Shown here piece after piece: positions 1,723-57,777 of a DNA stretch of 64,000 bases (position 1 is the stretch's first letter; each line of letters starts with the position of its first letter). Source of the stretch: an uncultured bacterium (GTDB lineage: Bacteria > Hinthialibacterota > Hinthialibacteria > Hinthialibacterales > Hinthialibacteraceae); the NCBI GenBank assembly GCA_964419335.1, contig CAYQOX010000024.1, positions 1,162 through 65,161 on the forward strand. The letters are read 5' to 3'. The notes beneath the pieces were generated by a model. The model ran no database searches. It was not told the DNA's origin and saw nothing but the letters and a program-made list of their open reading frames with translations. The translations under genes and the position numbers were made by a program.

Positions 1723-1949
1723 GGTTCATCCTGTATTTGAGTCCTTTTTGATACATTGAAAAGAAAACAGAACATGATTCTAAAGTGAGAACCATGGTTA
1801 TTTTCAATTTACATGAATCGTACCAAAACGCCGAAGGGGCCTGTGTGGAGCGGCTTTCGGAGCAAGCGGCCCTTAAGGCCGCGCGGAGACAAGCGAAACA
1901 CATCCCCAAGGCGTTTTCCCAAAAAAAGGACTCACTTTCGTGATGAGCC
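1723..1949 (+). mobile_element. MITE copy 1 (full length, ~227 bp) flanked by 8-bp TSD TTAATATA (1715-1722 / 1950-1957)
   Basis: Starts ggttcatcctgtatttgagtcc, ends ggactcactttcgtgatgagcc; internal conserved GC-rich core gcggcccttaaggccgcgcgg; identical 8-bp direct repeats on both flanks. Confidence 0.85.
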
Positions 1950-2960
1950 TTAATATATTGCCCATTCACTCACATCCGAGGGAAATTCTCCCCCCGGTAC
2001 GACCGCCATATTGAAGAAAGAACGAAAACTCGCATCCGCCTCCAAACCGGCTTGTTCAAAACCCGATGTGATATCGATAATGCGAGGCCCTGCGTTTAAA
2101 TCCGTAGCATCAAATACCCCAAACTTATTGAGGAGCTCCGGCACATCATGATTCCCCACTACGAAATTCGTGGTTCCCGGGATCTGGGCGATTCCCCATA
2201 TTCCTGTAAATCCGTCTTCCACCGCGTTGTACTCTTCTTCCAATTCACCATCCAGGCTAATTCGTACTAACGTGGATTGATCCCCCAAAGAGGCTACCAC
2301 CGAACCAATTTCATCATTATAAGTCAAAGAACGTACCACCCGGTCATCATTATAAAAGACCCCCGTAGGCTCTCCTCCTTCTTCTTTGTCATACACATGA
2401 ATCCCGGGATTATTTGCATCTCCCATCAACAACCGGCCATCCGGCAGCAACAATGCTTCCCCATGACCGCCTTTAACATAATCGCTCCACTCTGTGATGT
2501 CACCATCTGCAATTTTATAACGCCAGGCAACATCTTGATCATCCACATTACTATTCACGACCACTTCCCCCGGTCCAATCGCGGCCAAATGGGTAATCTT
2601 TATAATATCCGCCATGAATAACTGCTGATTGCCTTCACTATCAATCCGCAACATTTCTCCAATCCCATCGGGATATTCATTCTCTGGATCCGGCTCAAAT
2701 ACTGCCGTAATTCCTACCCAGACTACCCCTTCGGGATCCACATCTAACCCTAAAGCACGCCGACGATCGGTGTCTTCTAAGTCCCAACGAATCACGTTGA
2801 TCACTTCCGCCTCGTTTCCGTCGATGTTCAACTCAACAATTTGACCATCAGGCGAATAAAAAGGATCAGCAAAGATCACATTCCCCGGTTCAAACAGCTG
2901 CGCTTGAACCATCATCGGCGCCAAAAGAAAAGCGAATACCACAAATAATCTCATTCTCAT
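1950..2960 (-). CDS. secreted hypothetical protein (signal peptide MRMRLFVVFAFLLAPMMVQAQ; beta-propeller-like repeats)
   Basis: ORF 1950..3119 trimmed to Met at 2960, which has GGAGG 8 nt upstream; the N-terminal extension MLCFLFNVSKRTQ is translation of MITE copy 2. Confidence 0.6.
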   Translation of the reverse strand: MRMRLFVVFAFLLAPMMVQAQLFEPGNVIFADPFYSPDGQIVELNIDGNEAEVINVIRWDLEDTDRRRALGLDVDPEGVVWVGITAVFEPDPENEYPDGIGEMLRIDSEGNQQLFMADIIKITHLAAIGPGEVVVNSNVDDQDVAWRYKIADGDITEWSDYVKGGHGEALLLPDGRLLMGDANNPGIHVYDKEEGGEPTGVFYNDDRVVRSLTYNDEIGSVVASLGDQSTLVRISLDGELEEEYNAVEDGFTGIWGIAQIPGTTNFVVGNHDVPELLNKFGVFDATDLNAGPRIIDITSGFEQAGLEADASFRSFFNMAVVPGGEFPSDVSEWAIY

Positions 2961-3061
2961 AATACAACCTCCATCTAAAAAAGATTTAATCGATATAATA
3001 AAAAATAATAATAATTCATTCTTTTGTATAGATTTATACAACCCATTTTCCAAAAAAAATG

Positions 3062-3292
3062 AAAAAAGTTCATCCAGTATTTGAGTCCTTTTTGATACAT
3101 TGAAAAGAAAACAGAGCATGCTTCTAAAGTGAGAACCATGGTTATTTTCAATTTACATGAATCGAACCAAAACGCCGAAGGGACTTGTGTAGAACGCTTT
3201 TTGTACCAAGCAACCCTTAAGACCGCGCGGAGACAAGCGGAACTCATCCCCGAGTCGTTTATCTCAAAAAAATACACCCTTGTCGAATAATC
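3062..3292 (+). mobile_element. MITE copy 2 (full length, divergent termini) with 10-bp TSD AAAAAAAATG (3052-3061 / 3293-3302)
   Basis: Same conserved core as other copies; direct repeat AAAAAAAATG on both flanks. Confidence 0.75.
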
Positions 3293-3375
3293 AAAAAAAA
3301 TGGCATGGAACCTCGGCTTCCCTTTATATATGGACTACAATGATGAAATTACATCTTCTCATGGGAGACTAGGAA

Positions 3376-4660: not shown

Positions 4661-4699
4661 AATAAAATTCCATCATTTGATCAAAAGAAAAAACAAAGT

Positions 4700-6246: not shown

Positions 6247-6253
6247 AGATATA

Positions 6254-7182: not shown

Positions 7183-7331
7183 AATGCTTTTATATTTTGA
7201 CAAGCATAAGGCATCTATGGTAAAAAAGAAGAGAAAATCTACCCTTGAGAGAATTCAACGCCGTAGGCAACCTGTCCTGATCTCTTTTTTAAGGTTGGAT
7301 TTTCTTTCGTGGATTAAATTTGGTTCATCCT

Positions 7332-7519
7332 GTATTTGAGTACTTTTTAATGCCTTGAAAAGAAAACATGACATGATTCGATCGCGAGGCCTCTGTTTTT
7401 CAATCCTAGTGAATCGAACCAAAACACCGAAGGGGCTTGTGTGGAGCGGCTTTTGGAGCAAGCGGAACCCATCCCCAAGGCGTTTTCTCCCAAAAAAGTA
7501 CTCACTTTCGTGATGATCC
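7332..7519 (+). mobile_element. MITE copy 3 (internal ~40-bp deletion of the GC-rich core)
   Basis: Shares both termini and the 5' half with other copies; lacks the gcccttaaggccgcgcggagacaagc segment; flanks TTAAATTT / TTATATTT (1 mismatch). Confidence 0.75.
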
Positions 7520-7568
7520 TTATATTTATACAATCGGTTCGTTAAACGAATAGAATGCGAGGTTGATC

Positions 7569-8918: not shown

Positions 8919-8920
8919 TA

Positions 8921-10123: not shown

Positions 10124-10135
10124 TCCTTGTTTCTC

Positions 10136-10163
10136 TTTGATCCCATCACCCTATGCTATAATA
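10136..10163 (+). promoter_or_regulatory. sigma-70-like promoter candidate (TTGATC -N16- TATAAT)
   Basis: ctttgatcc...ctatgctataatacc 30 nt upstream of GGAGG RBS and ATG 10195. Confidence 0.4.
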
Positions 10164-10194
10164 CCCCTAACGACTCTAGGAGGAATCTATACTT

Positions 10195-10848: not shown

Positions 10849-10859
10849 CCATCAATTTT

Positions 10860-11084
10860 GCTCATGTAATTTGTCTCTTTTTTGACACATCGAAAAGAAA
10901 GCATGACATAATTCTATAGCAAGACCTATGACTTTTTTAGAACTCAATGAATAGAACCAAAACGCCGAAGGGGCTTGTGTGAAGCGGCTTTCGTAGCAAG
11001 CGGCCCTTAAGGCCGCGCGGAGACAAGCGGAACTCATCCCCGAGGCGTTATCTCCAAAAAAAGTATTCACTTTCGTAGTAAGCC
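10860..11084 (+). mobile_element. MITE copy 4 (full length, 5' terminus divergent)
   Basis: Conserved core gcggcccttaaggccgcgcggagacaagcgg; flanks TCAATTTT / ACTAATTTT; starts immediately after the stop codon of 10195..10848. Confidence 0.75.
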
Positions 11085-11259
11085 ACTAATTTTCTTCTTG
11101 TAATGTATTTTCTGTTATGTTATTAATGGAAAAGAGCATGTTCTGATCATCTTGTTTATTTTTAGGAAAGGGGGGATAACCAACACTTATTCCAAATAAC
11201 AGAACCCAAAATGGACAAGTAGTTTTTCACAAAAGGATTAGGTTTGGGGAGGTATTCTT

Positions 11260-14554: not shown

Positions 14555-14650
14555 GGTTCATCCTGTATTTGAGTTCTTTTTGATACATTGAAAAGCAAAC
14601 ATGACATGATTCTAAGCGAGACCTTTGACTTTTTTCAGTGCATAAATAAA
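14555..14650 (+). mobile_element. MITE copy 5, 5' fragment only (~95 bp), abutting start codon of response regulator at 14548
   Basis: ggttcatcctgtatttgagttctttttgatacattgaaaagcaaacatgacatgattctaagcgagacc... then unrelated sequence; conserved core and 3' terminus absent. Confidence 0.7.
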
Positions 14651-17342: not shown

Positions 17343-17571
17343 GGTTCATCCTGTTTTTGAGTACTTTTTGATACATTGAAAAGGAAACATGACATGATGC
17401 CATAGCGAGACCTATGACTTTTTTTCAATCCTAATGAATCGAATCAAAACGCCGAAGGAGATTGTGTGAAGCGGCTTTCGGAGCAAGCGGCCCTTAAGGC
17501 CGCGCGAAGACAAGCGGAACACATCCCCCAGGCGTGTGCTCCCAAAAAAGGACTCACTTTCGTGATGATCT
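17343..17571 (+). mobile_element. MITE copy 6 (full length) in the 5' leader of the sigma-54 activator gene
   Basis: Both termini and conserved core present; lies between a TGnTATAAT element and ATG 17593. Confidence 0.8.
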
Positions 17572-17592: not shown

Positions 17593-18978
17593 ATGAACAT
17601 TACTCTCATGAATCTCCATCTTCAAAATAATCACCATACAGACTTTGATATCATTCTCGACTCCATCGCCGATGGCGTGTTTACCGTCGATCACGAATGG
17701 AAAATCACCAGCTTTAACCGCGCAGCCGAAGAAATTCTTGGTATTCCCCGGGATGAGGCCATCGGTCGCCCCTGCTGCGAAGTCTTTCGCTCCAGCATCT
17801 GCGAAAGCCAATGCGCCCTAAGTGAAACCATGCGCTCCGGCCAATCCATTGTGAATAAAACCATCTTTGTCGTGAACACCAAAGGCGAAAAAATCCCCAT
17901 CAGCATTTCTACCGCCATCCTCAAAGATGAAGAAGGTAACATCATTGGCGGCGTAGAAACCTTCCGGGATGTCAGCCAAGTAGAAGAATTAAAAAAAGAA
18001 CTCACCAAACAATACTCCTTCATGGATATTCTCGGCCGCAGCCCCTCCATGCAAAACATCTTCGAAATTCTCCCCCATATCTCCCAAAGCAACGTCGCCG
18101 TTCTCCTCAGCGGCGAAAGCGGCACCGGCAAAGAACTCTTCGCCCGCGCCATCCATAATATCTCCCCCCGCGCCAAATATCCTTTCGTCGCGGTTAACTG
18201 TGCCGCCTTGCCCGATTCTTTACTGGAATCGGAACTGTTTGGCTACAAAGCCGGCGCCTTTACCGACGCAAAACACAATAAAGCCGGACGCTTTTCTCTC
18301 GCCCACCGCGGGTCTATTTTCCTCGATGAAATTGGCGATATCTCCCCCGCCATGCAGACGCGCCTTCTCCGCGTTCTCCAAGATCAAACCTTCGAACCGC
18401 TGGGCTCCACCGACTCAGTCCAAGTGGACGTCCGCATCATCACCGCTTCCAACAAGGACCTTTCCCAACTTGTTCAACAAGGGGTCTTTCGTGATGATTT
18501 ATACTACCGTATTAATGTCATCAAAATCGATATTCCCCCCTTGCGCGAACGCAAAGAAGATATCCCTCAATTGATCCAACATTTCGTCTCCAAATACAGC
18601 CGTTTAGAATCCAAAGAAATCTCCGGCGTCTCCGACTCCGTCATGGCCACACTGATGGATTACGAATTCCCTGGCAATGTCCGTGAATTGGAAAATATTA
18701 TCGCCCATTCCGTCGTTTTATGCAGCACCGGCACCCTCGAAATCCAACACCTCCCCTCCAACATTCTCCCCCAATCCCTCACTCCCTCCACTCCCTCCAC
18801 AAAACCCATGTCACTTCGCGATATGGAATCTTTCCATATCATGAATTCCATTCGTCAACATCACGGCAATCGCACCGCCGCTGCCAAAGCCCTGGGTATC
18901 CACCCCAGTACGTTGTTCCGCAAAATTAAAGAACTAAACCTCGATCTCCCTGATATGGACGGCCGCCATCGCAAATAA
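17593..18978 (+). CDS. PAS-domain sigma-54-dependent transcriptional activator (enhancer-binding protein, no REC domain)
   Basis: N-terminal PAS; AAA+ sigma-54 interaction domain (GESGTGKELFARAIH, ESELFGY, GAFTDA variant of GAFTGA, FLDEIGD); C-terminal HTH (AAAKALGIHPSTLFRKIKEL). Confidence 0.85.
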   Translation: MNITLMNLHLQNNHHTDFDIILDSIADGVFTVDHEWKITSFNRAAEEILGIPRDEAIGRPCCEVFRSSICESQCALSETMRSGQSIVNKTIFVVNTKGEKIPISISTAILKDEEGNIIGGVETFRDVSQVEELKKELTKQYSFMDILGRSPSMQNIFEILPHISQSNVAVLLSGESGTGKELFARAIHNISPRAKYPFVAVNCAALPDSLLESELFGYKAGAFTDAKHNKAGRFSLAHRGSIFLDEIGDISPAMQTRLLRVLQDQTFEPLGSTDSVQVDVRIITASNKDLSQLVQQGVFRDDLYYRINVIKIDIPPLRERKEDIPQLIQHFVSKYSRLESKEISGVSDSVMATLMDYEFPGNVRELENIIAHSVVLCSTGTLEIQHLPSNILPQSLTPSTPSTKPMSLRDMESFHIMNSIRQHHGNRTAAAKALGIHPSTLFRKIKELNLDLPDMDGRHRK

Positions 18979-19145
18979 TAGTATTGCATAATGCGATCCT
19001 CTTTATCCCTATTTACTCTCCTTTTGCAAGTCTGTCTTTTCGCTAATCTCTGTCCCCTCAAACAAAAATGCTTGAATCTATTATTTTTATAAAAGATTGT
19101 TCTCAATTCCCAAATTTGGCACGTTTCCTGTATACCTACCCTAAC

Positions 19146-19550
19146 ATGAAAGTATCAATCCCGGTTTGGAACCATAGGGTATCGCCCGTATTCGATACCG
19201 CCCGGCGTTTATTGGTCTTCACAGATACAGGAGAAGATCAAATTAAACAGGTGGAATACTTAGTCGAAGGACTTGACTTCTTCCACCGGGTCGAATGTCT
19301 CATTCGCATCGAAGTTGATGTGCTTATCTGTGGGGCTATTTCCAAACCTCTGGAAGATGAGATCGTTTCACGCGGGATTCAAGTCATTTCCCAAGTGTGC
19401 GGAAATGTAAACGAGGTATTCGAAGCCTATTGCTCCAAACGTATTTTTACCGATTACTTCTTGATGCCCGGCTGTTGTAAAAAAAGAAGAATTCGCAATC
19501 GGTTTAGAAAAAAGAAAGGAAAGGATCCATTACGTGAAAATCGCTATTAG
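19146..19550 (+). CDS. NifX/NafY-like (dinitrogenase FeMo-cofactor-binding fold, PF02579-type) small protein with basic Cys-containing tail
   Basis: MKVSIPVWNHRVSPVFDTARRLLVFTDTG...LICGAISKPLEDEIVSRGIQVI fits the NifB/NifX-family fold; ORF 19068 trimmed to ATG 19146. Confidence 0.5.
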   Translation: MKVSIPVWNHRVSPVFDTARRLLVFTDTGEDQIKQVEYLVEGLDFFHRVECLIRIEVDVLICGAISKPLEDEIVSRGIQVISQVCGNVNEVFEAYCSKRIFTDYFLMPGCCKKRRIRNRFRKKKGKDPLRENRY

Positions 19551-19896
19551 TTCCCAAGGGAAACACTTGGATAGTCCAATCGATCCTCGATTTGGACGCG
19601 CATCGTACTTCATCATCGTCGACACAGAAACAGACGAATTTACATGCCATGATAATGACCAAAACAAGAATGCCACCCAAGGCGCTGGGATCCAAACCGC
19701 CAGTACTCTCATTGATCTCGGCGTAAAGGCTGTCATTAGCGGCAACCTCGGCCCTAAAGCCTTTTCAACTTTACAAGCAGATAATATCGATATGTACACC
19801 ATGCCAGCCGGTACCGTCAACGAAGCCGTTACGAAATTTAAAACCAGTCAATTAAATTCTGTAAACAAAGCAAGCGTAGAAGGACGTTGGGTATAA
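19534..19896 (+). CDS. NifX/NafY-like (PF02579-type) cofactor-binding protein
   Basis: MKIAISSQGKHLDSPIDPRFGRASYFIIVD...GAGIQTASTLIDLGVKAVISGNLGPKAFSTLQADNI canonical family pattern. Confidence 0.7.
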   Translation: MKIAISSQGKHLDSPIDPRFGRASYFIIVDTETDEFTCHDNDQNKNATQGAGIQTASTLIDLGVKAVISGNLGPKAFSTLQADNIDMYTMPAGTVNEAVTKFKTSQLNSVNKASVEGRWV

Positions 19897-19897
19897 T

Positions 19898-20779
19898 ATG
19901 AAATCTTATCTTGACTGTATACCATGTTTCATGCGCCAAACCTTGGATGCCATTCGCCGCATCACTGACGATGAAAGCATCCAAGAAAGTGTCCTGCGCA
20001 CCATTTTGCTTGAAGCCAGTCAAATGGATCTAAACGAACCGCCGCCCCGCATGGGACAAAAAATTCATCGCCTTATTCGTAAAAAAACCGGAGTTTCTGA
20101 TCCCTACGAAGAAACAAAACGCCAATCCAATCAGGAAGTCCTTTCCCTCTACCAGGGATTACGCTCCATCATCGACGATACAGATGAATCGATCGAACTG
20201 GAAACTGCTTTTCGCTTAGCCATCGCGGGCAACATCATCGATCTCGGCACTAATTCGCATATTCATCGCGCCGATATCCAAAAAGGAATCGATCAGGCTC
20301 TTGTCGATCCTTTTTACTGGGACCATAAAGAAATACTGAAATCCATCAGCCAAGCCCATAGCATTCTCTACATCGCCGATAATGCCGGTGAAATTGTCTT
20401 TGATCGCTTACTGATCGAACGTCTACCCAAAGATAAAATCACGGTCGCCGTACGAGGCTTTCCCGTCTTAAACGATGCCACCCGCTTCGACGCTGAAGAA
20501 ACCGGCTTAACCTCTCTCGTGCATGTGATTGATACCGGCTCCGATGCCCCCGGCATCCTTCTTGAAGAATGCTCAGACGAGTTTTTACACCATTTCAACA
20601 ACGCCGATCTCATCATGGCCAAAGGCCAAGGAAACTATGAAACCTTAAGCGATCTCAACAGAAAAATTCTTTTCATATTGAAAGCCAAATGTCCTGTCAT
20701 CGCTCGGCACATTGGCTGCCAAGTCGGTGACATGATTTTAACCATGAATCGTTCTCCAGCTACGATTCAACAACCATAA
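19898..20779 (+). CDS. DUF89 family protein (ARMT1-like damage-control phosphatase fold, CxxC subfamily)
   Basis: N-terminal LDCIPCFMRQ motif characteristic of subfamily-I DUF89 proteins; length ~290 aa. Confidence 0.55.
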   Translation: MKSYLDCIPCFMRQTLDAIRRITDDESIQESVLRTILLEASQMDLNEPPPRMGQKIHRLIRKKTGVSDPYEETKRQSNQEVLSLYQGLRSIIDDTDESIELETAFRLAIAGNIIDLGTNSHIHRADIQKGIDQALVDPFYWDHKEILKSISQAHSILYIADNAGEIVFDRLLIERLPKDKITVAVRGFPVLNDATRFDAEETGLTSLVHVIDTGSDAPGILLEECSDEFLHHFNNADLIMAKGQGNYETLSDLNRKILFILKAKCPVIARHIGCQVGDMILTMNRSPATIQQP

Positions 20780-20804
20780 AAAGATATCATTCTAAGAAAG
20801 TGAG

Positions 20805-21212
20805 GTGATGATGATGCCAGGAGGAGACAGAAGAGGACCCTTAGGCATGGGACCCATGACCGGTCGTGCCGCAGGTTTCTGCGCAGGCTACTCCGCCCCG
20901 GGTTACATGAACCCGGCCTTCGGTCCTGGCTTTGGCCGCGGCCGTGGCCGGGGTGGTATGTTCGGCGGTGGCCGTGGTTGGCGTAATTGGTATTACGCCA
21001 CCGGCTTAACCGGTTGGCAGCGTGCTATGGCCGGGATGCCGCCCCATGGATACACCCCTCCCGCGGCGGCACCCGCCCAAGCCCCCCCAAATTGGGCTAT
21101 GAGCAAAAACCAAGAACTCGATGAACTCAAAGGCCAGGCGGAATATCTCGAGGACGCTCTGGATGGAGTAAAAAAACGCATCTCAGAATTGGAAAGCGAA
21201 CAAGCAAAATAA
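20805..21212 (+). CDS. DUF5320-like protein with Gly/Arg-rich N-region and C-terminal coiled coil
   Basis: GPMTGRAAGFCAGY...GRGRGRGGMFGGGRGWRNWYYATGLTGWQR matches DUF5320 conserved block; C-terminal ELDELKGQAEYLEDALDGVKKRISELE. Confidence 0.55.
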   Translation: MMMMPGGDRRGPLGMGPMTGRAAGFCAGYSAPGYMNPAFGPGFGRGRGRGGMFGGGRGWRNWYYATGLTGWQRAMAGMPPHGYTPPAAAPAQAPPNWAMSKNQELDELKGQAEYLEDALDGVKKRISELESEQAK

Positions 21213-21282
21213 ACTAACACTATGTTTGGCTAGGGTTCCTCCCATCATCCCATTCACCCTAGCCATTTTTTTGGAGAATACT

Positions 21283-21849
21283 ATGAGTATCGCGATAACT
21301 GCACAACAACCAACTTTAGATTCCGATGTGGATCCTCGCTTTGGCCGCTGCGCCTACCTTCTCATCGTCAATCCTGATAACTTCGAATTCGATGTCATGG
21401 AAAATCCCAATCTCTCCGCTTCCAGCGGCGCCGGGATCCAAACCGCCTCCCTCCTTTCCGAAAAAGGAGTCGATACCGTCATTACCGGCAACTGCGGCCC
21501 CAACGCCCACCAAACCCTCTCCGCTGCTGGGATCAACGTCATTACCGGTGCCGGCGGCCCCATCCGCGCTGTGCTCGAACAGTATCAACTCAATCATTTT
21601 TCTTCCGCCCAGGGCCCCAACGTCGATTCCCATACCGGCATGGCCAATAACGTAAATCCTTCTCCCGACCCAAATTTAAGTACACCGAATACAGGTTTCC
21701 CCGCCTCGGGTATGGGCCGAGGGAAAGGCCAAGGTCGAGGTGCCGGGGGTGGAGGCGGACGCGGCCAAGGCGGCGGCCGTGGTCAGGGACGAGGTCGAGG
21801 CCAAGGCCAAGGCGGTGGTGCTGGCGGCGGCCGTGGACGCAATCGCTGA
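21283..21849 (+). CDS. NifX/NafY-like (PF02579-type) protein with long C-terminal RGG/GRG-repeat tail
   Basis: MSIAITAQQPTLDSDVDPRFGRCAYLLIV...GAGIQTASLLSEKGVDTVITGNCGP; tail GRGKGQGRGAGGGGGRGQGGGRGQGRGRGQGQGGGAGGGRGRNR; GGAGA RBS; ORF 21226 trimmed to ATG 21283. Confidence 0.65.
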   Translation: MSIAITAQQPTLDSDVDPRFGRCAYLLIVNPDNFEFDVMENPNLSASSGAGIQTASLLSEKGVDTVITGNCGPNAHQTLSAAGINVITGAGGPIRAVLEQYQLNHFSSAQGPNVDSHTGMANNVNPSPDPNLSTPNTGFPASGMGRGKGQGRGAGGGGGRGQGGGRGQGRGRGQGQGGGAGGGRGRNR

Positions 21850-21894
21850 TTAATGTATTCTTACTCACGGATCAACCCAAGGGACTTTCGATCG

Positions 21895-22761
21895 ATGAAA
21901 ATATCAATTGCTAGTGGAAAAGGTGGTACCGGCAAAACCACCATCGCGACCAATCTCGCCTTTGCTCTATCCCAACAAGGCCTTCCAACATCCTATGTGG
22001 ATTGCGACGTTGAAGAGCCCAACGGGCACCTCTTTCTCAATCCCACCCGTGAAAGTCGAGAAACCGTGGGCATCACCGTTCCCTCCGTTAATCAAGAACA
22101 GTGCACCTTATGCGGGCTCTGCGGCCACATTTGCGCCTACAGCGCCATCGTTTGCGTTGGACAACAAGTGCTTACTTTCCCTGAATTATGTCATTCGTGC
22201 GGCGGGTGTTGGTTGGTCTGCCCCCAAAAGGCAATCTCAGAATCTTTTCGTCCCATGGGGGTCATCGAATTTGGACACGCAGGCTCCCTTCAATTCACCC
22301 AAGGAGTCTTAAACATTGGTGAAGTCATGCCCACCCCTGTACTCCGTGAATTGAAGAAAAAAGCCCCTCTGACCGAGGTCTCCATCTTTGACGCTCCCCC
22401 CGGGACCTCATGCCCCGTCATTGAAACCATACTCGATTCTGATTATGTCCTCCTTGTCGCCGAACCCACCCCCTTCAGCTTCCACGATTTGAAACTGGCA
22501 ATCGAGATGGTTCGTGAAATAAAATTACCTTTTGGCGTGGTTCTCAACAAAGCCGATGTGGAATACAGCGACTTGCTTGATTATTGCAATCGCATGCAAA
22601 TTCCAATCTTAGCCCAAATTCCACACCAACGCCCTATTGCTGAAGCCTATTCCCGGGGTGAATTACTCTGTTCTATCTTCCCAGAATATACAAAACTGTT
22701 TTTGGATATTTATAAATCAATTGAAACTGAGGTCGGTCAAACAAAGGGTATGACAATATGA
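21895..22761 (+). CDS. MinD/Mrp-superfamily P-loop ATPase with inserted 4Fe-4S ferredoxin domain (COG1149-type)
   Basis: MKISIASGKGGTGKTT deviant Walker A; CTLCGLCGHICAY and CHSCGGCWLVCP cysteine clusters. Confidence 0.75.
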   Translation: MKISIASGKGGTGKTTIATNLAFALSQQGLPTSYVDCDVEEPNGHLFLNPTRESRETVGITVPSVNQEQCTLCGLCGHICAYSAIVCVGQQVLTFPELCHSCGGCWLVCPQKAISESFRPMGVIEFGHAGSLQFTQGVLNIGEVMPTPVLRELKKKAPLTEVSIFDAPPGTSCPVIETILDSDYVLLVAEPTPFSFHDLKLAIEMVREIKLPFGVVLNKADVEYSDLLDYCNRMQIPILAQIPHQRPIAEAYSRGELLCSIFPEYTKLFLDIYKSIETEVGQTKGMTI

Positions 22762-23654
22762 AAGAATTGGTTGTGATCAGTGGTAAAGGTGGAACCGGCA
22801 AAACTTCCATTGCCGCTTCTCTCGCTGCATTAGTACAAAAGGTCGTTATTGCGGATTGTGATGTGGATGCCGCCGATATGCATTTGCTCCTTTCACCACA
22901 AATTCAATTCAAACAAAACTTTTCTGGCGGCTCCATCGCTCGGATTTTACCTGGACATTGCACCGCGTGTGGCAAATGTGAAGAGATCTGCCGCTTCGAT
23001 GCCATTTACTACGACGGCCCAGGTAATGGCATGGTCGACAAAACCTTTCGAATCAATCCTGTCCAATGCGATGGGTGTGGTGTGTGTGCCTGGTTTTGTG
23101 CAGAACATGCCATTGAATTCAAACCAGCCATCAATGGTGAATGGTATCAATCAGAAACCCGCCTTGGATCCATGGTTCATGCCAAATTAGGTGTCGCCGA
23201 AGAAAACTCGGGAAAACTAGTCACCTTAGTTCGTAATGAAGCAAAAAAACTCGCCCAACAGCAGCAAAGCGATTGGCTTCTCATTGATGGTTCTCCCGGC
23301 ATTGGTTGCCCTGTCATCGCTTCCATCACCGATACCGATTTAGTTCTCATTGTCGCCGAGCCCACCCGCAGCGGGATCCATGATTTAGAGCGGGTCGCGA
23401 AACTTACCCATCAACTCAACCTCAAAACCTTTGTTTGCATAAACAAGTGGGATATCAATCCCGAGCTTTCCCAGCAAATCGAAGAAAAAGCCCAAAACGT
23501 ATATTTACATTTTGCCGGCCGCATTCGTTATGATCCTGCATTCGATGCCGCCCAAAGAGAGCAGAGAACCCTCATCGAATTCCAACACAATGGTTCAGCG
23601 GATGATATCAAAAAATTATGGACAAACATAATCAATCATAAGGAGAGCAGATAA
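22758..23654 (+). CDS. MinD/Mrp-superfamily P-loop ATPase with inserted 4Fe-4S ferredoxin domain (paralog)
   Basis: ISGKGGTGKTS; CTACGKCEEICRF and CDGCGVCAWFC clusters; ATGA start/stop overlap with upstream paralog. Confidence 0.75.
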   Translation: MKELVVISGKGGTGKTSIAASLAALVQKVVIADCDVDAADMHLLLSPQIQFKQNFSGGSIARILPGHCTACGKCEEICRFDAIYYDGPGNGMVDKTFRINPVQCDGCGVCAWFCAEHAIEFKPAINGEWYQSETRLGSMVHAKLGVAEENSGKLVTLVRNEAKKLAQQQQSDWLLIDGSPGIGCPVIASITDTDLVLIVAEPTRSGIHDLERVAKLTHQLNLKTFVCINKWDINPELSQQIEEKAQNVYLHFAGRIRYDPAFDAAQREQRTLIEFQHNGSADDIKKLWTNIINHKESR

Positions 23655-23655
23655 A

Positions 23656-23994
23656 ATGAAGATTGCCATACCCGTTGTTGATGAAAAATTATCGGCTCAT
23701 TTTGGTCATTGTGAGTATTTCTCTTTGTACGAGGTGGATGAAAACACAAAGTCTATCCGTAGCCAATCCCAGCACACCCCGCCCCCGCATGAACCTGGCC
23801 TATTACCCCAATGGCTGCACGACCTGGGAGCGGATGTCATCATTTCCGGGGGCATGGGACAGCGGGCCCAACGCCTTTTTCAACAAAAAGGCATCCAAGT
23901 CATCGTCGGCGCCTCCAACGATCCCCCCGAAACCATCGTTACTCACTACATCAATAATTCTCTCGAAACCTCCTCCAACATGTGCGATCACTAA
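23656..23994 (+). CDS. NifX/NafY-like (PF02579-type) cofactor-binding protein
   Basis: MKIAIPVVDEKLSAHFGHCEYFSLYEV...LGADVIISGGMGQRAQRLFQQKGIQVI. Confidence 0.65.
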   Translation: MKIAIPVVDEKLSAHFGHCEYFSLYEVDENTKSIRSQSQHTPPPHEPGLLPQWLHDLGADVIISGGMGQRAQRLFQQKGIQVIVGASNDPPETIVTHYINNSLETSSNMCDH

Positions 23995-28034: not shown

Positions 28035-28090
28035 TGAATTTTACCAACAAATTTTCATAAGGCTAAAAAGTCCTAAAGCAGGTGTTGTTA

Positions 28091-28112
28091 ACGTGAATAA
28101 CACCTTTTTTAT
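28091..28112 (+). terminator. hairpin aggtgtt-N12-aacacct followed by T6, directly abutting MITE copy 7 (overlaps its left TSD)
   Basis: Seen directly; no plus-strand gene immediately upstream. Confidence 0.3.
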
Positions 28113-28340
28113 GGTTCATCCTGGATTTGAGTACTTTTTGATCCATTGAAAAGAAAACAGAACATGATTCTAAAGTGAAAACCATGGTTATTTTCAATGT
28201 ACATGAATCGAACCACAACGCCGAAGGGGCTTGTGTGGAGCGGCTTTCGGAGCAAGCGGCCCTTAAGGCCGCGCGGAGACAAGCGAAACACATCCCCAAG
28301 GCGTTTTCCCCAAAAAAAGTACTCACTTTCGTGATGAGCC
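28113..28340 (+). mobile_element. MITE copy 7 (full length) flanked by 8-bp TSD TTTTTTAT (28105-28112 / 28341-28348)
   Basis: Near-identical to copy 1; perfect direct repeat on both flanks. Confidence 0.85.
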
Positions 28341-28466: not shown

Positions 28467-30089
28467 CTAATCTCGCTTCTCCAGCCAAGCGATCCAGTCC
28501 TTGACTCCCGTTCTCGCAACCTCCGGAGTAGGGTTCTCCAAGGTATAGGCTCCCTCAACCGTTATCTGCTTCCCTTCAACCCACCTCCCCCTGCGCGGAT
28601 TAAACCACCTTAGTTGATAATCCCCCGCAGGCAGTTCCACTTCCTGCTTAAATCCATCGATCCGCGGGTTATCACTGCGTACATCTTCCCCATCCGGATT
28701 CGGCAAATAAATAATATAATTTTGCTCATCATGAATACACTTCGCCCGCTTAGGCTCGCCTCCTACCCGCTCATCCGCGGGTCTCATCCCTGCCAATGTA
28801 AGGTTGCTCTCCTCAAAGAACGTGTGTATATGCTTAAAATCATGCGCTCCCTGAGATAACACCCCCTTGCGATTGGCGTCGTAGTACCCCTGCACGCCTC
28901 GCACCAGCCCACCGTCATAGGCTTCATAAGTCCTTAACCCACCATACGTTGCATGACCTCCCGAGAGTAAGTTCGCCCACATCAAGCGCCGGAAATAATA
29001 ACGCGCATTGGCCGGATCGCGATACATTTCATATCGGTCTTCATCCAGCACCACCGGATCATTCCCCTTTTCCCGATACTCCAAAACCAACTCCCCCGCC
29101 GCCTCATCAATATCCTCTAGCGTAATCATGTCAGACCAGGACGCATCCACAAAAGAATACCCCGCAAACCGGTTTTGCTGATTGGTAATAAGCGTCCCCC
29201 AGGGCTCGCGTTTCTTCATATCCATGCCAATTTGATCAATCACGTGCCGGCTAATTTCACGTCCGCTTAATTGACTTAAATCTTCTTCCTCCACTATTTC
29301 ACGATCATTGGAAATTTCCCAGTAGATATTCGGGAAAGACGACCAGCGGGCTTGCGCATAACCGGCAATAAACTGCGATAGCCGATCCCCTTGCCCATAA
29401 CGAATCAACTCTTGCGTATCTTCCGCATAAGGAATCAACTGCACTAGGATATGGGGATAATGCTCCAAACAATAAAGCAAACGTTTTTCGATTTCTTGCC
29501 AATAATTTAAAACCAACCTTTCCCGCTCCGGCGTATATAACGCTTCCACCGTACTTCGGGATTGCGCAAACCAGGTACGTATTTTCGTAAATCCGGCTTC
29601 CGCGGCTTGATCGATATATTCTTGCCACTTTGGCTCCGACTGCACCACAAACCGATATCCGGTATCCCCAATATGCAAAAACCACTCTCCGTTATCATAC
29701 GCAAATTGCCGGGAATCCTCGGGATGAATGCGTAACTTCCCAGGCAGTTCCGATGGAATCACCTCAAACGTACCCCGGATACCCTCCAAAGCCTCGAGAT
29801 TAGATCGAACTTCATAATTCCAAGTCCCTTGCGTATCACAATACGCCCGCGCTTTATACGTCCGGTACCCGTCATAAAAACCCTCAGCGGTAGTTTTCGT
29901 ACCATCAGGACGCGTAAATTCCACCTGAAAGTGGAGATCAAGATAAGGATCGTCGATGCCACGGTTTGTTTGGACCTTGATCTCATACACCCCGCGATGC
30001 AAGGCTTTATCGCCATGATAAATCATCTCTTCGGCTTTCACTGAAACGCTTACAAGGAATAAAAGCATAAACATAATCGTTTGTTTCAT
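28467..30089 (-). CDS. secreted glycoside hydrolase-like protein (DUF5060 Ig-like N-domain + DUF4038 cellulase-like TIM barrel; GH140-like architecture)
   Basis: Signal peptide; domain-level resemblance only (YDNGEWFLHIGDTGYRF..., TKIRTWF...). Confidence 0.45.
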   Translation of the reverse strand: MKQTIMFMLLFLVSVSVKAEEMIYHGDKALHRGVYEIKVQTNRGIDDPYLDLHFQVEFTRPDGTKTTAEGFYDGYRTYKARAYCDTQGTWNYEVRSNLEALEGIRGTFEVIPSELPGKLRIHPEDSRQFAYDNGEWFLHIGDTGYRFVVQSEPKWQEYIDQAAEAGFTKIRTWFAQSRSTVEALYTPERERLVLNYWQEIEKRLLYCLEHYPHILVQLIPYAEDTQELIRYGQGDRLSQFIAGYAQARWSSFPNIYWEISNDREIVEEEDLSQLSGREISRHVIDQIGMDMKKREPWGTLITNQQNRFAGYSFVDASWSDMITLEDIDEAAGELVLEYREKGNDPVVLDEDRYEMYRDPANARYYFRRLMWANLLSGGHATYGGLRTYEAYDGGLVRGVQGYYDANRKGVLSQGAHDFKHIHTFFEESNLTLAGMRPADERVGGEPKRAKCIHDEQNYIIYLPNPDGEDVRSDNPRIDGFKQEVELPAGDYQLRWFNPRRGRWVEGKQITVEGAYTLENPTPEVARTGVKDWIAWLEKRD

Positions 30090-30127
30090 TTTTCTTGTTC
30101 CTTCGAAGTATTAGATTCTCTTTGTGG

Positions 30128-30167
30128 GGTCATCCTGTATTTGAGTCCTTTTTGATACATTGAAAAC
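30128..30167 (+). mobile_element. MITE copy 8, ~40-bp 5' terminal stub upstream of the start codon (30089) of the minus-strand GH gene
   Basis: ggtcatcctgtatttgagtcctttttgatacattgaaaac then unrelated sequence. Confidence 0.6.
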
Positions 30168-30336
30168 AATACCTTCATATGACTTAGACAATATCCAAAC
30201 ATTAAGATATCTTATAATAATAGTGTATTTTTTCATGAAGGGGGACAGGTCACTTTTTAACCTCTTCTCCACCTAGCCAAACAAAATCAACTCGGGATAT
30301 ACTATCCGAGAAATTCATACGCGAAATTTTCATGGA

Positions 30337-46403: not shown

Positions 46404-46438
46404 TCCGCTTTTAAGAAACCAAAGAGAGGGAGGCTCGT

Positions 46439-48816: not shown

Positions 48817-48836
48817 CATCACCTCGCCCCGTGGGG

Positions 48837-50042: not shown

Positions 50043-50165
50043 GAGATCAATTCTTTTTTATTTTTGTAGTCGGTTCCCCATTTTAGCCATCTCATAAAAA
50101 ACTACTATAAAGAAAAAGCACAATGAAATAAAGTCTTTATACCTCAAAAGTTCCAATGAAATAGT

Positions 50166-50202
50166 AAAAAAAATACCGCACTCTCAACCGTCCTGAGTGC
50201 GG
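50166..50202 (-). terminator. Rho-independent terminator downstream of dnaA
   Basis: Minus strand: ccgcactc-N11-gagtgcgg followed by TATTTTTTTT. Confidence 0.65.
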
Positions 50203-50231
50203 CACCCTGGGCCTTTTACCCCGTTTCGCGT

Positions 50232-51644
50232 CTATTTGAAATTTGTGATCGTGTCGGTAATTTGTTCCATGACCGAGCGTAATTTTTGTTCGGCTTCCAT
50301 TTCTTTCTCAATTTTGTTGTAAGCAAAGAGAACCGTGGTGTGATCTTTGTTCCCGAAAAACGCGCCAATTTCTGGGAAAGAATGCTGGGTTAATTTCCGG
50401 CTGAGGTACATGGCGATTTGCCTAGGACGCGCGATCGAACGCGAACGGTTCTTCCCGATGATATCTGATGGTTTGATGCTGAAATATTCTGCGACTTTTC
50501 GTTGGATTTTCTCAATCGTGACTTCCTTGGTGGGACGGTCGAAGATCTCCCCGAGCACCTTACCCACTGTTTCAACGTTGAGATTCTCATTCGAAAACTT
50601 CGCGTAGGCGGTAATCTTGGCGAGGGCGCCTTCCAACTCACGAATGGAAAAACGCACTTTACTGGCGAGAAATTCCAAAATGTCATCGGGGATGATCATA
50701 TCCTCGGTTTCACATTTTTTCCGTAAAATCGCCATACGCATCTCAAAATCGGGAGGGGTAATATCTACGATCAATCCCCACTCGAAGCGTGAGCGGAGGC
50801 GGTCTTCGATGGTGGGGATATCCTTAGGCGGACGATCGCTGGAAATCACGATTTGTTTGCGGCGGTTATGGAGCGCGTTAAACGTATGGAAGAATTCTTC
50901 CTGGGTAGATTCTTTCCCCGCTAGAAATTGAATATCGTCGATCAGCAAGACATCCACATTACGGAAGGTGGATTGAAACGAGAGGCGGGCGTTGCGCTTA
51001 ATCGCATCGATAAAGACGTTGACGAATTGTTCCGCCGAGAGATAGACCACCCGCTTGGCGGGGTGTAAATACTGCACTTTATTCCCGATCGCCTGCATTA
51101 AGTGGGTTTTTCCCAGTCCGACACCGCCGTAGACAAACAGAGGGTTGTAGGATTGGGCTGGAGCAGCGGCCACCGCTTGAGCGGCCGCATTCGCCATTTT
51201 GTTACATGTTCCAACCACGAAATTGTCAAAAGTATAACTGGCGTTTAATGGTTCAAACTCAAGCAATCCTTCTGTGCTTGTAATGGCTGGGCTGTAGGAA
51301 GGAGCATAAGAACTTGGGGCTTGTGCCTTCACCTCTTCCCCCATCGAGCCGCTGAGTCGAATTTCTACATCCACAATACAATCCAATAATTCAGAAAATA
51401 TATCCGTTAGCAGGGCATGGTAATTCTTTTCGATGTATTCCCTGCGGTACCCGCTGGGGATACCTAGTATGACGTTACCATCTATGTTTTCAAGGACTTG
51501 TGCATCTTCAAACCAATCTTCTAATTCATCTTCCGTGAGTTTATGACGCAGCGCTTCTTGCGCCTTTTCCCAAAGAGAGCGTGTGTTATCCGTGTTCATT
51601 ACATTGGGCATGACTACCATTTTTTCCATAATCCTCCTTCCCAT
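50232..51644 (-). CDS. dnaA: chromosomal replication initiator protein DnaA
   Basis: AAA+ box LFVYGGVGLGKTHLMQAIGN; domain IV IARPRQIAMYLSRKLTQHSFPEIGAFFG.KDHTTVLFAYNKI; true start probably 51628 or 51620 (GGAGGA RBS at 51633-51638). Confidence 0.9.
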   Translation of the reverse strand: MGRRIMEKMVVMPNVMNTDNTRSLWEKAQEALRHKLTEDELEDWFEDAQVLENIDGNVILGIPSGYRREYIEKNYHALLTDIFSELLDCIVDVEIRLSGSMGEEVKAQAPSSYAPSYSPAITSTEGLLEFEPLNASYTFDNFVVGTCNKMANAAAQAVAAAPAQSYNPLFVYGGVGLGKTHLMQAIGNKVQYLHPAKRVVYLSAEQFVNVFIDAIKRNARLSFQSTFRNVDVLLIDDIQFLAGKESTQEEFFHTFNALHNRRKQIVISSDRPPKDIPTIEDRLRSRFEWGLIVDITPPDFEMRMAILRKKCETEDMIIPDDILEFLASKVRFSIRELEGALAKITAYAKFSNENLNVETVGKVLGEIFDRPTKEVTIEKIQRKVAEYFSIKPSDIIGKNRSRSIARPRQIAMYLSRKLTQHSFPEIGAFFGNKDHTTVLFAYNKIEKEMEAEQKLRSVMEQITDTITNFK

Positions 51645-51649
51645 GCTTA

Positions 51650-52610
51650 CAAACTGTAAAACAGTTCACTAGATGGGAGCCAAAAGTTCAATTCATACAA
51701 TGACTTATGCTCAAAATAGAGCAAAAAAAACCATCCCTCCCTCACTCGGTGGTCCTAAGTGAGCCTTGATCCAATCGCATTGTGACCTCTCAGTTAATTC
51801 AGATTGCGGAAATTATAGAGTTTCTCGATCTTTCCTTTTTATTTCTCAAGGTTTTGTTGTTCGTAAATGGATGTCGTAAAGGAGGGCCTTTTTCTATCCC
51901 TTATTCACAAGTTATCCCCTTTATCCACAGGACTATCCACAGGTTATTAACAAAGCCTTGATTTTTATAATCTTATGAATGTGATTCGTTGTTGATATTT
52001 TTAGCATTCTCTTCGTATTCACGCAATGCCTTTTTCACTTTTTCCGATTAAAACAAGGAAATTAAAAAGGCTGTAAATGGTTTAATGAAAGTCTGTTAGC
52101 CCATCAAAAAAAAATTGAAATTTTTTCAGCCGCTTTTGTTTGTTTTTTGTCTTATTCTTTATAAAAAATTGAATTTATTGACTTTAATAGTTTGGAGAAA
52201 TAGAGAACCTTGAATTTACTTGAAAAAGTTAAGAAAAACCAATTAGATAGAATTAATAGGCCTCGGTTAGATTTCTTGCCAAGACTTCTTCTATCTTCTT
52301 AAAAAACAGTCCATTACAAAAGCATTTTGCAAGAAGATTTTACGAATATCCCCAGAAAGGGGCCTCTTTTTTTGTACCTAAGTTCAATAATTCTTGGTCT
52401 ATAACGAGGAAATGCTTGTATTGACCGATGCGATGATGAAACCTCTTTTCGTTCCTGATCGGCTTTATTTATCCACAGATTTGAGATTTTCTCGTTCAAA
52501 AACGCTGGATTTCGGTCAATCCATCGAACCGGGAGGTGCTTTTTCTCCAAATTCCCTTAAACGTTAGTTGGTTAGGAGCCAAAATACAGAGTAAGACATT
52601 TTAGCATTGG
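51650..52610. other. candidate chromosomal replication origin (oriC): DnaA boxes plus AT-rich unwinding region
   Basis: TTATTCACA 51901-51909, TTATCCACA 51921-51929, CTATCCACA 51933-51941, TTATCCACA 52469-52477; long A/T tract 52100-52200; immediately upstream of dnaA. Confidence 0.65.
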
Positions 52611-52619
52611 AGGTAGAAA

Positions 52620-53729: not shown

Positions 53730-53833
53730 GACGGAAAGAGATGCTCCCAAGCTCTGGCAATTGAATTCGGTGTGGGTTTTCATTACGATTCAGTGAAAAT
53801 CGAATGCCGGTTTTGTAAGGGAAGGGTAGCTTC

Positions 53834-55666: not shown

Positions 55667-57519
55667 ATCAAGAAGATGCACAGCGTTTCCGGGATAATGT
55701 CAAGCTGGCCATGCAAGTTCGCCCTGGGTTATTCGACTCGTGCGAGGCCTTGCTGGGGTTGGCGGACCGGCTGCGGATTGATCGCGAGGGGGAGCGGATT
55801 CTTTGCGTGAGGGCCTTGGAGGAGGGCGGCGAGCAGACCTTGTATGAGAGCGCCTGCGAATCATTGTGTAAAAAACAACAAGCCGCCTTGCAGAACAATC
55901 TAGAGCAAGGGGTGCGTTTTCAAGTGATTGCGGGGCTGGGTATTGGCCATGTAATGGAGAGTGCTCATTCTCTTTTACAGCAATACCCGCGGGGGGCGAT
56001 GGCGCTTTTCGAGACGGATTGGATGCGCTGGGCAGGGTTGTTTGCCTTGTTTGATGTGCGGGAATGGTTGAGTCAAGAACGTCTTTATCTCTTTGCGGGG
56101 GAGAATGCTCCTCAAAACCTGGTGGAGTTTATTACCCAAGAGTATGTTTATCTTTTGCCCACCTCGCAATTCGCGTATGTGCTTGGGCATCTTCCCCGCC
56201 GGGAAGATGAAGCCCAGTTTTATATGCAGAAGGCGCGTCAAACGGCGGAATCGATTGAGCAGGCGCGTCAATCTTTTGATCAATCATTGAACACATTTCT
56301 AACCGCAATGAAAGAGCCGCCGCAGGTTTTTCGTACGGTTTGGAGTTGCGTCTCACGCGAAGCCTATATCCATTTTCCTCTTGCACGAGCCTTTATGGAG
56401 GGGTGGGAAAAACAAGGTTTTCGTTCTCAGCTAGAGCCTTTCGATCATCAGTTTACAACCAATTTTCGAATTGTAGGGCATTTGGTGGAGAGCCGGCCGG
56501 ATGTGTTTTTTTCTATAAATACGTGGCCGGTTGAAATGCTGCTTGATCTTGGTTTTCAGAAAGAGACGGTAGAGTCGATGCCCCATCCGCGGGTGGGGTG
56601 GCTAGTGGATGATACGCGGTTGTACGAGGATGAGTTTTCGCCGGCACCGCTAACCTCGTGGGATTTCATTTTTTGTATTGACCGAACGTACATGGAGACT
56701 ATTCGTCATCCCGCCCAGCAGGTGTATTTCCTTCCTCCCGCGAGTCAGTTTGAGAAGCCGGGGGACTATCGTGAAGAGTTTGCAGCGCCGATTTCGTATG
56801 TGGGATCGTTGCCGGATGTGATGGAGTCCTTGCAGCGATTGCCTGCGGGAGTGAGAGATCTGATTGAGCGGGTGGAGAGAGCGCGGCAAGGAGAGTATCG
56901 GGTTTCGTTTGTGGAGCATTGGCGCAGGTTGGAAGCGAAGGATGAAGAGCGGCTGCTTGGGGTTGCGCGGGAGTTTTGCGCGACGACGCATAAGGGGTTT
57001 ACTAACGAACGCGCCATGCTGGAATATTTTCTTTATAATTGTGCGACCTTTTTGAAACGAAAGCGGATTGTAGAGGCTTTATTGCCTTTGGGGTTAAAGG
57101 TTTTTGGTCCCCAAGCCTGGTTGGATTGGCTTCCTGAAGAATATAAAGAGCGGTATGGGGGATTTGTCGCTTCTCGGGAGTTAGCGGATTGTTATGCTTC
57201 GGCGAAAATAAGTTTGAATATCCACAGTCATCAATGTCCCACTTGTTTGAATCCCCGTGATTTTGATGCCGCGATGGCGGGGAGTGTGGTCTTAGGCGAT
57301 TGGGTGGAAGATATGGAGAGGGATCTCTTCTGTCCAGGGAAGGAGATCTATGCGTTTCATCATGAAGAGGAAGCGGTCGAGAAGGCGCAATGGTTATTGC
57401 ACGATGAAGATCAGTTGGACGCGAGTCAAGAGCGGGTGCGAAGGCGTATCCTGAAAGAGCATCTCTATGAACACCGGGTCCAAAGGGTGTTAGAGAAGAT
57501 CAAAGCCTCCAAAGGATAA
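55663..57519 (+). CDS. CgeB-like / DUF3880 family glycosyltransferase, paralog 3
   Basis: ISLNIHSHQCPTCLNPRDFDAAMAGSVVLGD...EEAVEKAQWLLHDEDQLDASQERVRRRILKEHLYEHRV; ATGA overlap with upstream paralog (ORF 55594 trimmed to ATG 55663). Confidence 0.6.
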   Translation: MNQEDAQRFRDNVKLAMQVRPGLFDSCEALLGLADRLRIDREGERILCVRALEEGGEQTLYESACESLCKKQQAALQNNLEQGVRFQVIAGLGIGHVMESAHSLLQQYPRGAMALFETDWMRWAGLFALFDVREWLSQERLYLFAGENAPQNLVEFITQEYVYLLPTSQFAYVLGHLPRREDEAQFYMQKARQTAESIEQARQSFDQSLNTFLTAMKEPPQVFRTVWSCVSREAYIHFPLARAFMEGWEKQGFRSQLEPFDHQFTTNFRIVGHLVESRPDVFFSINTWPVEMLLDLGFQKETVESMPHPRVGWLVDDTRLYEDEFSPAPLTSWDFIFCIDRTYMETIRHPAQQVYFLPPASQFEKPGDYREEFAAPISYVGSLPDVMESLQRLPAGVRDLIERVERARQGEYRVSFVEHWRRLEAKDEERLLGVAREFCATTHKGFTNERAMLEYFLYNCATFLKRKRIVEALLPLGLKVFGPQAWLDWLPEEYKERYGGFVASRELADCYASAKISLNIHSHQCPTCLNPRDFDAAMAGSVVLGDWVEDMERDLFCPGKEIYAFHHEEEAVEKAQWLLHDEDQLDASQERVRRRILKEHLYEHRVQRVLEKIKASKG

Positions 57520-57550
57520 GGTTGTGCATTTCCTCGGAGGCTTTTTTTAT

Positions 57551-57777
57551 GGATCCTCACGAAAGTGAGCCCTTTTTTTGGAGAACGCCTTGGGGTTGTG
57601 TTCCGCTTGTCTCCGCGCGGCCTTAAGGGCCGCTTGCTACGAAAGCCGCTCCACACAAGCCCCTTCGACGTTTTGGTTCTATTGATTCGGATCGAAAAAA
57701 GGCATGACTTTCATTTATAGAATCATGTCATGTTTCCTTTTCGAGGTCTCAACAAATACTCAACGACAGGAAGAACC
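57551..57777 (-). mobile_element. MITE copy 9 (full length, inverted orientation) flanked by 9-bp TSD TTTTTTTAT (57542-57550 / 57778-57786)
   Basis: Reverse complement of the family consensus including gcggcccttaaggccgcgcgg core; perfect 9-bp direct repeat on both flanks; between convergent genes. Confidence 0.85.

Follow-up and report, generated by a model that had tools for sequence, protein, structure and literature searches.

A probable miniature inverted-repeat transposable element family in the putative replication origin region of an uncultured Hinthialibacterota bacterium

Background

Published insertion sequences (ISs) of the ISL3 family carry GG-tipped inverted repeats (IRs) and 8-bp direct repeats (DRs) that are often AT-rich; ISArsp7 has the end GGCTCTTCGCGGTTGGTGGTGAAT (GGCTCTTCG...) and the DR CCTTTGCC, and ISPst2 has the end GGGTATCCGGAATTTCTGGTTGAT and the DRs TTTTTAAA and CAAAAAAG (PMC6305408). 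In Microcystis aeruginosa PCC 7806, a MITE (miniature inverted-repeat transposable element) of 187 nt, with GGCTCTTCG at its tips and DRs of 8 nt, has been connected with ISL3 (PMC11448079), and the Mutator-like IS group makes duplications of 8-9 bp, the target of ISH6 being the AT-rich AANATNTT (PMC3942029). The subject of this report is a family of short repeats, very probably MITEs that are new to description and of a known kind, in DNA from an uncultured bacterium of the family Hinthialibacteraceae (phylum Hinthialibacterota; GenBank assembly GCA_964419335.1, contig CAYQOX010000024.1, positions 1,162 to 65,161 of the forward strand). This whole stretch of 64,000 nucleotides is referred to below as the window. 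Among the families with duplications of 8 bp are ISL3, IS1595, IS6 and the Mutator-like ISs (IS256, ISH6, ISLre2 and ISKra4), of which ISH6 is almost entirely archaeal. Among classical bacterial MITEs, the target-site duplication (TSD) is TA for Correia and RUP, and 9 bp for MITEAba12.

The window repeats resemble the Microcystis MITE in being short, non-coding, multicopy and capable of forming stem-loops, with imperfect GGCTC/GGYTC terminal inverted repeats (TIRs) and 8-nt repeats, and mobilisation in trans is proposed for them here. They differ from it in their tip (GGYTCATCC in place of GGCTCTTCG), in a longer TIR of 27 bp that includes a second block, TGAGTNCTTTTT, in that no ISL3 transposase with matching ends was found, and in their hosts, which are uncultivated lineages and not cyanobacteria. 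With ISL3 ISs (ISArsp7, ISPst2/ISPpu12) they share GG-tipped repeats, ~24 bp long in those elements, together with DRs of 8 bp that frequently consist of A or T runs (for example, TTTTTAAA and CAAAAAAG), whereas the ISs are autonomous, 1.4-3 kb in length and equipped with a DDE_Tnp_ISL3 gene, and at most 13 of 24 IR positions match. The likeness to Mutator-like ISs (IS256, ISH6, ISLre2, ISKra4) lies in the 8-9-bp TSD, by which the comparison was made; the ISH6 target motif AANATNTT does not occur, on either strand and as read by eye, in the perfect TSDs (TTAATATA, TTTTTTAT, AAAAAACT, TTTTTATT, ATTCCTTT and TTATTAAA). Correia/NEMIS, RUP, ERIC, Nezha and MITEAba12 likewise combine TIRs and a TSD with an intergenic position, the lack of an open reading frame (ORF) and a hairpin-foldable sequence, and for the window family mobilisation in trans is again the proposal; these classical bacterial MITEs nevertheless have other TIRs and TSDs, and none shares sequence with the window element.

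Results and discussion

Nine family members in 64 kb

Searches of the window with copy 1 (BLASTN) and with a profile built from the seven full copies (nhmmer) identified exactly nine family members, comprising seven full copies and two 5' stubs, with E-values from 1e-117 to 1e-15, while the next-best match in the window had an E-value no better than 0.4. A repeat finder produced the same list, and the repeat of ~230 bp with nine members that had been described from the letters alone (the sequence-only reading) was recovered in full. Its coordinates stood except for two starts, that of copy 3 being 7322 (not 7332) and that of copy 2 being 3067 (given as 3062). The members, with evidence for each, were:

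1723-1949, + strand: copy 1, full, 227 bp (BLASTN, nhmmer, TIR pattern, TSD)
3067-3292, + strand: copy 2, full, 226 bp, between divergent genes; 5' tip AGTTCATCC, 3' TIR degenerate (BLASTN, nhmmer)
7322-7519, + strand: copy 3, full, 198 bp, with a 27-bp internal deletion (BLASTN, alignment, TSD)
10857-11084, + strand: copy 4, full, 228 bp; 5' tip degenerate, TTTGCTCATGTAATTTG (BLASTN, nhmmer, alignment)
14555-14643, + strand: copy 5, 5' stub of ~89 bp with intact left TIR, between two - strand genes (BLASTN, nhmmer, TIR pattern)
17343-17571, + strand: copy 6, full, 229 bp (BLASTN, nhmmer, TIR pattern, TSD)
28113-28340, + strand: copy 7, full, 228 bp, 96% identical to copy 1 (BLASTN, nhmmer, TIR pattern, TSD)
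30127-30172, + strand: 5' stub of 46 bp with intact left TIR, GGGTCATCCTGTATTTGAGTCCTTTTT (BLASTN, nhmmer, TIR pattern)
57551-57777, - strand: copy 9, full, 227 bp, the sole - strand copy, adjoining a terminator-like hairpin (BLASTN, TSD)

Full copies were 198-229 bp long (typically ~228 bp), showed pairwise identities of 73-96% and fell into two subfamilies, one of copies 1, 2 and 7 and the other of copies 3-6 and 9. When the copies were aligned together with 30 nt of flanking DNA, similarity ended at the TIR tips and the flanks were unrelated between copies. The immediate divergence of the flanks outside the TIRs shows that each copy is a discrete insertion, rather than a segment of some larger duplication; the latter was named in the sequence-only reading as a finding that would undo it. 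The 27 bp missing from the GC-rich hairpin of copy 3 lie exactly between CAAGCGG direct repeats, an arrangement that resembles a slippage or microhomology deletion.

Terminal inverted repeats and target-site duplications

In every full copy the ends form imperfect TIRs of 27 bp, in which two blocks are conserved: GGYTCATC at the tip and, 7 nt inward of it, TGAGTNCTTTTT. In copy 1 the left TIR is GGTTCATCCTGTATTTGAGTCCTTTTT and the right TIR, as reverse complement, GGCTCATCACGAAAGTGAGTCCTTTTT (the right end as read being ...AAAAAGGACTCACTTTCGTGATGAGCC). The TIR pattern GGNTCATCNNGNANNTGAGTNCTTTTT had 12 matches at no more than three mismatches in the window and none in 100 dinucleotide-preserving shuffles, which bears out the earlier description of the ends as an imperfect inverted repeat.

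For 14 elements, including relatives from other genomes that are described in the next section, the 8-nt flanks on the two sides of each element were compared in register. Five elements matched at 8/8 positions, two at 7/8 and four at 6/8, and one extra perfect TSD was present at locus L009. When, as a null, the left flank of one element was paired with the right flank of another, 8/8 matches occurred in 0.5% of pairs and matches of at least 6/8 in 6%. The individual duplications were:

Copy 1: TTAATATA at 1715-1722 and 1950-1957, 8/8
Copy 2: flanks are A-runs, 6/8 in register, ambiguous
Copy 3: TTAAATTT/TTATATTT, 7/8
Copy 4: ATCAATTT/ACTAATTT, 6/8 only with the eroded tip re-placed by eye to ~10859; 2/8 at the nominal tip
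Copy 6: CGATACCT/CGAATCCT, 6/8, decayed
Copy 7: TTTTTTAT, 8/8
Copy 9: TTTTTTTAT, 9/9; when restricted to 8 bp, 6/8 owing to a 1-nt shift
L003: AAAAAACT, 8/8
L004: TCAAACGT/TCAAACTT, 7/8
L006: TTTTTATT, 8/8
L007: ATTCCTTT, 8/8

Clean TSDs had been claimed for copies 1, 2, 7 and 9; those of copies 1 and 7 (8/8) and of copy 9 (9/9) were confirmed, and that of copy 2 was not, as six A's separate the proposed repeat, AAAAAAAATG, from the TIR in sequence of low complexity. Recurrence of the TSD at further copies, on which the same reading had staked its case, was found at L003, L006, L007 and L009, all at 8/8. The right-hand TSD of copy 1 contains the stop codon of an ORF at 1950-3119 (- strand).

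Targets were A/T-rich (~85% A+T), and copies 1, 7 and 9 and the element at L007 were inserted beside terminator-like hairpins (1663-1695, 28080-28105 and 57778-57830 in the window; ~6520-6553 in L007). The T-tail of the adjoining hairpin is itself the TSD at copies 7 and 9. Terminator tails, or simply A/T tracts between genes, may therefore be preferred as targets. More diverged copies carried more decayed TSDs, which is expected if the insertions are old. Older copies show eroded tips and TSDs, and two of them are 5' stubs, so that the family is an old one in decay, in which at most one pair (copies 1 and 7) is recent.

The elements thus display the generic features of MITEs, being shorter than 500 bp without a credible ORF and carrying TIRs and a TSD of fixed length, with dispersed copies in unrelated flanks. 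Six-frame translation gave no coding-like frame in the elements and no convincing coding remnants in the longer related elements, and Pfam scans of the 53 ORFs of the window revealed no transposase, as the sequence-only reading had stated. Its interpretation of the repeats as a non-autonomous transposon was upheld by the small size, the non-coding sequence, the 27-bp TIRs, the AT-rich TSDs of 8-9 bp, the unrelated flanks and this lack of a transposase gene in the window.

The same ends in other genomes

Scans with the TIR pattern returned 11 loci from 185,579 species-representative genomes, 13 from a metagenome collection and two from viral contigs. With these loci the window element had only the TIR in common, the interiors being unrelated. 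Inverted TIR pairs bounded elements of 206-418 bp in L003, L004, L006, L007, L008 and L010, which belong to metagenome-assembled genomes (MAGs) labelled Omnitrophota, Planctomycetota or 'bacterium'. A 308-bp element in a MAG of the Saprospiraceae (Bacteroidota; L009, 2191-2498) had the TIRs GGTTCATCGCGTAAATGAGTAC/GGTTTTTCGCATTTTTGAGTAC and the TSD TTATTAAA (8/8), and a lake-metagenome series (L015, L016 and L021-L024) carried GGTTCATCCGGTATTTGAGTACTTTTT, one mismatch from the left TIR of the window family. The element at L009 extends the group sharing this TIR beyond the PVC (Planctomycetes, Verrucomicrobia and Chlamydiae) and Omnitrophota lineages. Chance matches of the pattern in conserved coding DNA were set aside, namely those in a ParA/Mrp-like gene (L011, L013, L017, L020), in L001/L014 and in a methyltransferase gene (L012).

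Because the same TIR and TSD recur elsewhere, the window family can be placed as one branch of a wider group of small elements with the 27-bp end GGYTCATCNNGTAWNTGAGTACTTTTT and 8-bp TSDs. Contigs L002, L005, L015, L023 and L025 end 50-200 nt inside TIR-bearing elements, from which it follows that the elements, or longer relatives, are repeated enough to break assemblies. Neither the TIR nor the element was matched in plasmid and phage collections, and nothing relevant was found in the literature on the TIR strings or on MITEs of Planctomycetes. That the family is previously undescribed is consistent with these negative results and with those from Rfam given below.

The clustering of eight copies within 30 kb and in the same orientation could also be explained if the repeats were remnants of segmental duplications, or an intergenic cassette spread by recombination. 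Such an origin is, however, difficult to reconcile with similarity that ends exactly at the TIR tips, with a distinct 8-bp direct repeat at each intact copy and with the recurrence of the same TIR/TSD architecture in unrelated genomes, and its probability is considered close to negligible.

Copy orientation and the putative chromosomal origin

The window contains the following gene:

50232-51644, - strand: dnaA (Pfam)

Upstream of dnaA lies a 975-bp gap of 35% GC, gene and gap together spanning the region 50232-52619. The gap holds two perfect DnaA boxes (TTATCCACA), at 51921 and 52469, and two boxes with one mismatch, at 51901 and 51933. On the + strand the GC skew is below zero left of ~36 kb and above zero right of 52.5 kb, the sign changing across 36-52 kb. 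On the strength of dnaA, the AT-rich gap with DnaA boxes and the switch in GC skew, the window is predicted, almost certainly correctly, to contain the chromosomal replication origin. The repeat family and its wider TIR group make up ~3% of this origin-proximal region.

Left of the predicted origin, all eight copies and stubs lay on the + strand; right of it, the one copy (57551-57777) lay on the - strand. A single orientation relative to the replication fork was thus shared by 9/9, the top strands reading toward the origin (two-sided p ~0.004 if insertions are independent and unbiased). This orientation was independent of neighbouring genes, copies 3 and 4 being sense, copies 5 and 7 antisense and the others situated in convergent or divergent gaps. 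At the other TIR loci, a comparison of orientation with local GC skew was uninformative, the loci being too short. The polarity may be an accident of a small sample, a result of local hopping or a real bias related to the fork. Most genes between 3599 and 26377 are on the + strand, here the lagging strand by GC skew, and run head-on to the predicted direction of replication, an unusual organisation so near an origin.

Observations that weigh against the MITE interpretation

Several observations weigh against the interpretation of the family as ordinary MITEs. The TIR resembled the IRs of ISArsp7 at only 12-13 of 24 positions (ungapped identity; shuffle P 0.005-0.13), the shared part being the GG tip and GGCTC, and in ~20 genuine loci with the TIR, drawn from the genome, metagenome and viral collections, an autonomous element with these ends was not found. 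The shared orientation of 9/9 copies is not predicted by simple DDE cut-and-paste transposition. Internally, the elements have a long GC-rich hairpin besides an AT-rich one, and it is the former (alignment columns 106-196; for example, window positions 28217-28305) which is best conserved, with a mean pairwise identity of 89% versus 76-79% for the TIRs. Finally, transposition is inferred from its footprints. The closest homologues of the product of a flanking apiosidase-like gene (28467-30089) were 66-67% identical and came from Planctomycetota/Phycisphaerae MAGs, so that no close strain was available for an empty-site comparison; the contigs of the nearest homologues (L037 and L038, 37 kb in total) contained no copy and were not collinear with the window.

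The conservation of the hairpin and the uniform orientation of nine copies relative to dnaA/oriC are both features that would be expected if the family, although MITE by origin, had been kept for a selected module that depends on orientation, such as a structured small RNA, a transcription or replication signal or an RNA-stabilising hairpin. In the same direction point the stability of the top-strand RNA fold (z = -5.3 relative to shuffles, compared with -4.0 for the bottom-strand RNA and -3.1 as DNA) and one double, compensatory change in the AT-rich hairpin (columns 35/86), the only one in the consensus fold of seven copies. However, the TIRs pair with each other in every fold computed, and much of the excess stability comes from this pairing, which is common to any MITE. 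The diverged copies 2 and 6 break pairs of the GC-rich hairpin without compensation, Rfam gave no match at the gathering score over the window and none even at E<=1 on copy 7, and a simple scan of copy 7 showed no promoter or terminator inside the element, the sole terminator-like hairpin lying just outside with its T-tail forming the TSD. ARAGORN found no tRNA or tmRNA. As the orientation is moreover independent of neighbouring genes, and only nine copies from one window are involved, retention for such a module is regarded as unlikely.

Uniform orientation relative to the fork would also result from single-strand, fork-coupled spread of the kind known for palindrome-associated elements derived from IS200/IS605, and the strong subterminal and internal hairpins of the window elements are in keeping with this. 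Elements of the IS200/IS605 type have no TIRs and make no target duplication, but carry subterminal hairpins and insert strand-specifically 3' of a short target. The window family, in contrast, has clear 27-bp TIRs and in-register 8-bp TSDs and resembles this class only in its orientation bias, and neither a TnpA(Y1) nor a TnpB gene is present in the window, making such a mode of spread very improbable.

Transposase partner and family assignment

For the MITE family, an ISL3-family transposase is the best lead to a partner, tentatively held and short of an even chance. Other candidates with 8-9-bp duplications are IS256/ISH6-type Mutator-like elements, IS1595 and IS6. The suggestion of ISL3- or IS256-type transposition, made as a guess in the sequence-only reading, fits ISL3 in TSD length, AT-richness and GG tips, and is countered by a TIR identity of only 12-13/24 and by the failure to find a TIR-flanked transposase. 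The TIR matched the ends of ISPst2 at 7-10 of 24 positions, and its similarity to the ends of IS30, ISAs1, IS3 and Tn3 (table in PMC6305408) was no better than chance. Given the weak TIR identity to published ISL3 ends, ISL3 is a best lead and no more.

A full-length IS with GGYTCATC ends, which had been put forward as the element to look for, was not found among the ~20 genuine loci in other genomes, and none of these loci had a DDE_Tnp_ISL3 gene bounded by the TIRs or, the rejected candidate in L026 aside, any transposase gene between or next to them. Assembly breaks at repeats, as are usual with short reads, may explain the missing longer copies. The ORF at 1950-3119 (- strand), situated between copies 1 and 2, was considered as a hidden transposase and rejected, its product having a signal peptide and a secreted-like character and no Pfam match. 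A second candidate, a DUF772 (PF05598) transposase N-terminus located 182 nt past the TIR in L026, was rejected because the IS to which it belongs has its own left end, ACAGCCCGTTGAAAAAC, ~100 nt inside the TIR; in a comparison with the contigs of homologues, the DNA upstream of ACAGCCCGTTGAAAAAC was unrelated in L026, L034 and L036. This IS is IS5/IS1182-like and is inserted in or beside a TIR-bearing element. The region concerned is 8692-9119 of L026, an IMG/VR contig; the IS has a DUF772 N-terminal ORF, and its second ORF is frameshifted in L036. Many homologues of the N-terminal ORF are only 73-143 aa long and lie on short contigs or in truncated remnants (L028, L033).

Proposed mechanism and significance

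If the family is mobilised as MITEs are, a DDE-type transposase encoded elsewhere in the genome would be supplied in trans and would bind the bipartite TIRs (GGYTCATC and TGAGTNCTTTTT). It would then cut the target with an 8-bp stagger and join the element to it, and repair of the gaps would yield the target duplication. The internal hairpins and the pairing of the TIRs would in that case be a by-product or passenger feature, and not a selected RNA. A more far-reaching possibility is that the TIR GGYTCATCNNGTAWNTGAGTACTTTTT defines a cross-phylum MITE superfamily (Planctomycetota, Omnitrophota, Bacteroidota and others), moved by a transposase of an undescribed family, or of a described family with unsuspected behaviour, that inserts in a fixed orientation relative to the fork; this is thought improbable. 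To our knowledge, strand-specific insertion is otherwise known mainly for single-stranded DNA transposons and for TnsE of Tn7, and not for elements with TIRs and TSDs.

MITEs are routine in genomes, and the practical value of the family lies mostly in annotation. The elements seem to interrupt the assembly of MAGs from several uncultivated phyla, and knowledge of the consensus is useful for repeat masking, binning and scaffolding. The conserved 27-bp TIR provides a handle for finding a transposase mobile between lineages of the Planctomycetota, Omnitrophota and Bacteroidota. A uniform orientation relative to oriC, if true genome-wide, would constitute an unusual replication-polarised insertion or retention of a TIR/TSD element. 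Wider interest could come only from this polarity and from the transposase that was not found.

Neighbouring genes

Pfam matches among the 53 ORFs of the window included sulfatases, a 3-keto-disaccharide hydrolase, GFO/IDH/MocA oxidoreductases and xylose-isomerase-like TIM barrels, together with a pectate lyase, a sigma-54 activator, CysS, AsnB and DnaA. Taken by itself, the similarity of the apiosidase-like protein to homologues from Planctomycetota/Phycisphaerae MAGs pointed to an uncultivated planctomycete as the most likely host. A cluster at 19068-23994 encodes Nitro_FeMo-Co (dinitrogenase cofactor-like) small proteins, two CbiA/ParA-type 4Fe-4S ATPases, a DUF5320 protein and an ARMT1-like phosphatase. 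This conserved-looking operon, to which no role is assigned here, lies downstream of a PAS/sigma-54 activator gene (17593-18978).

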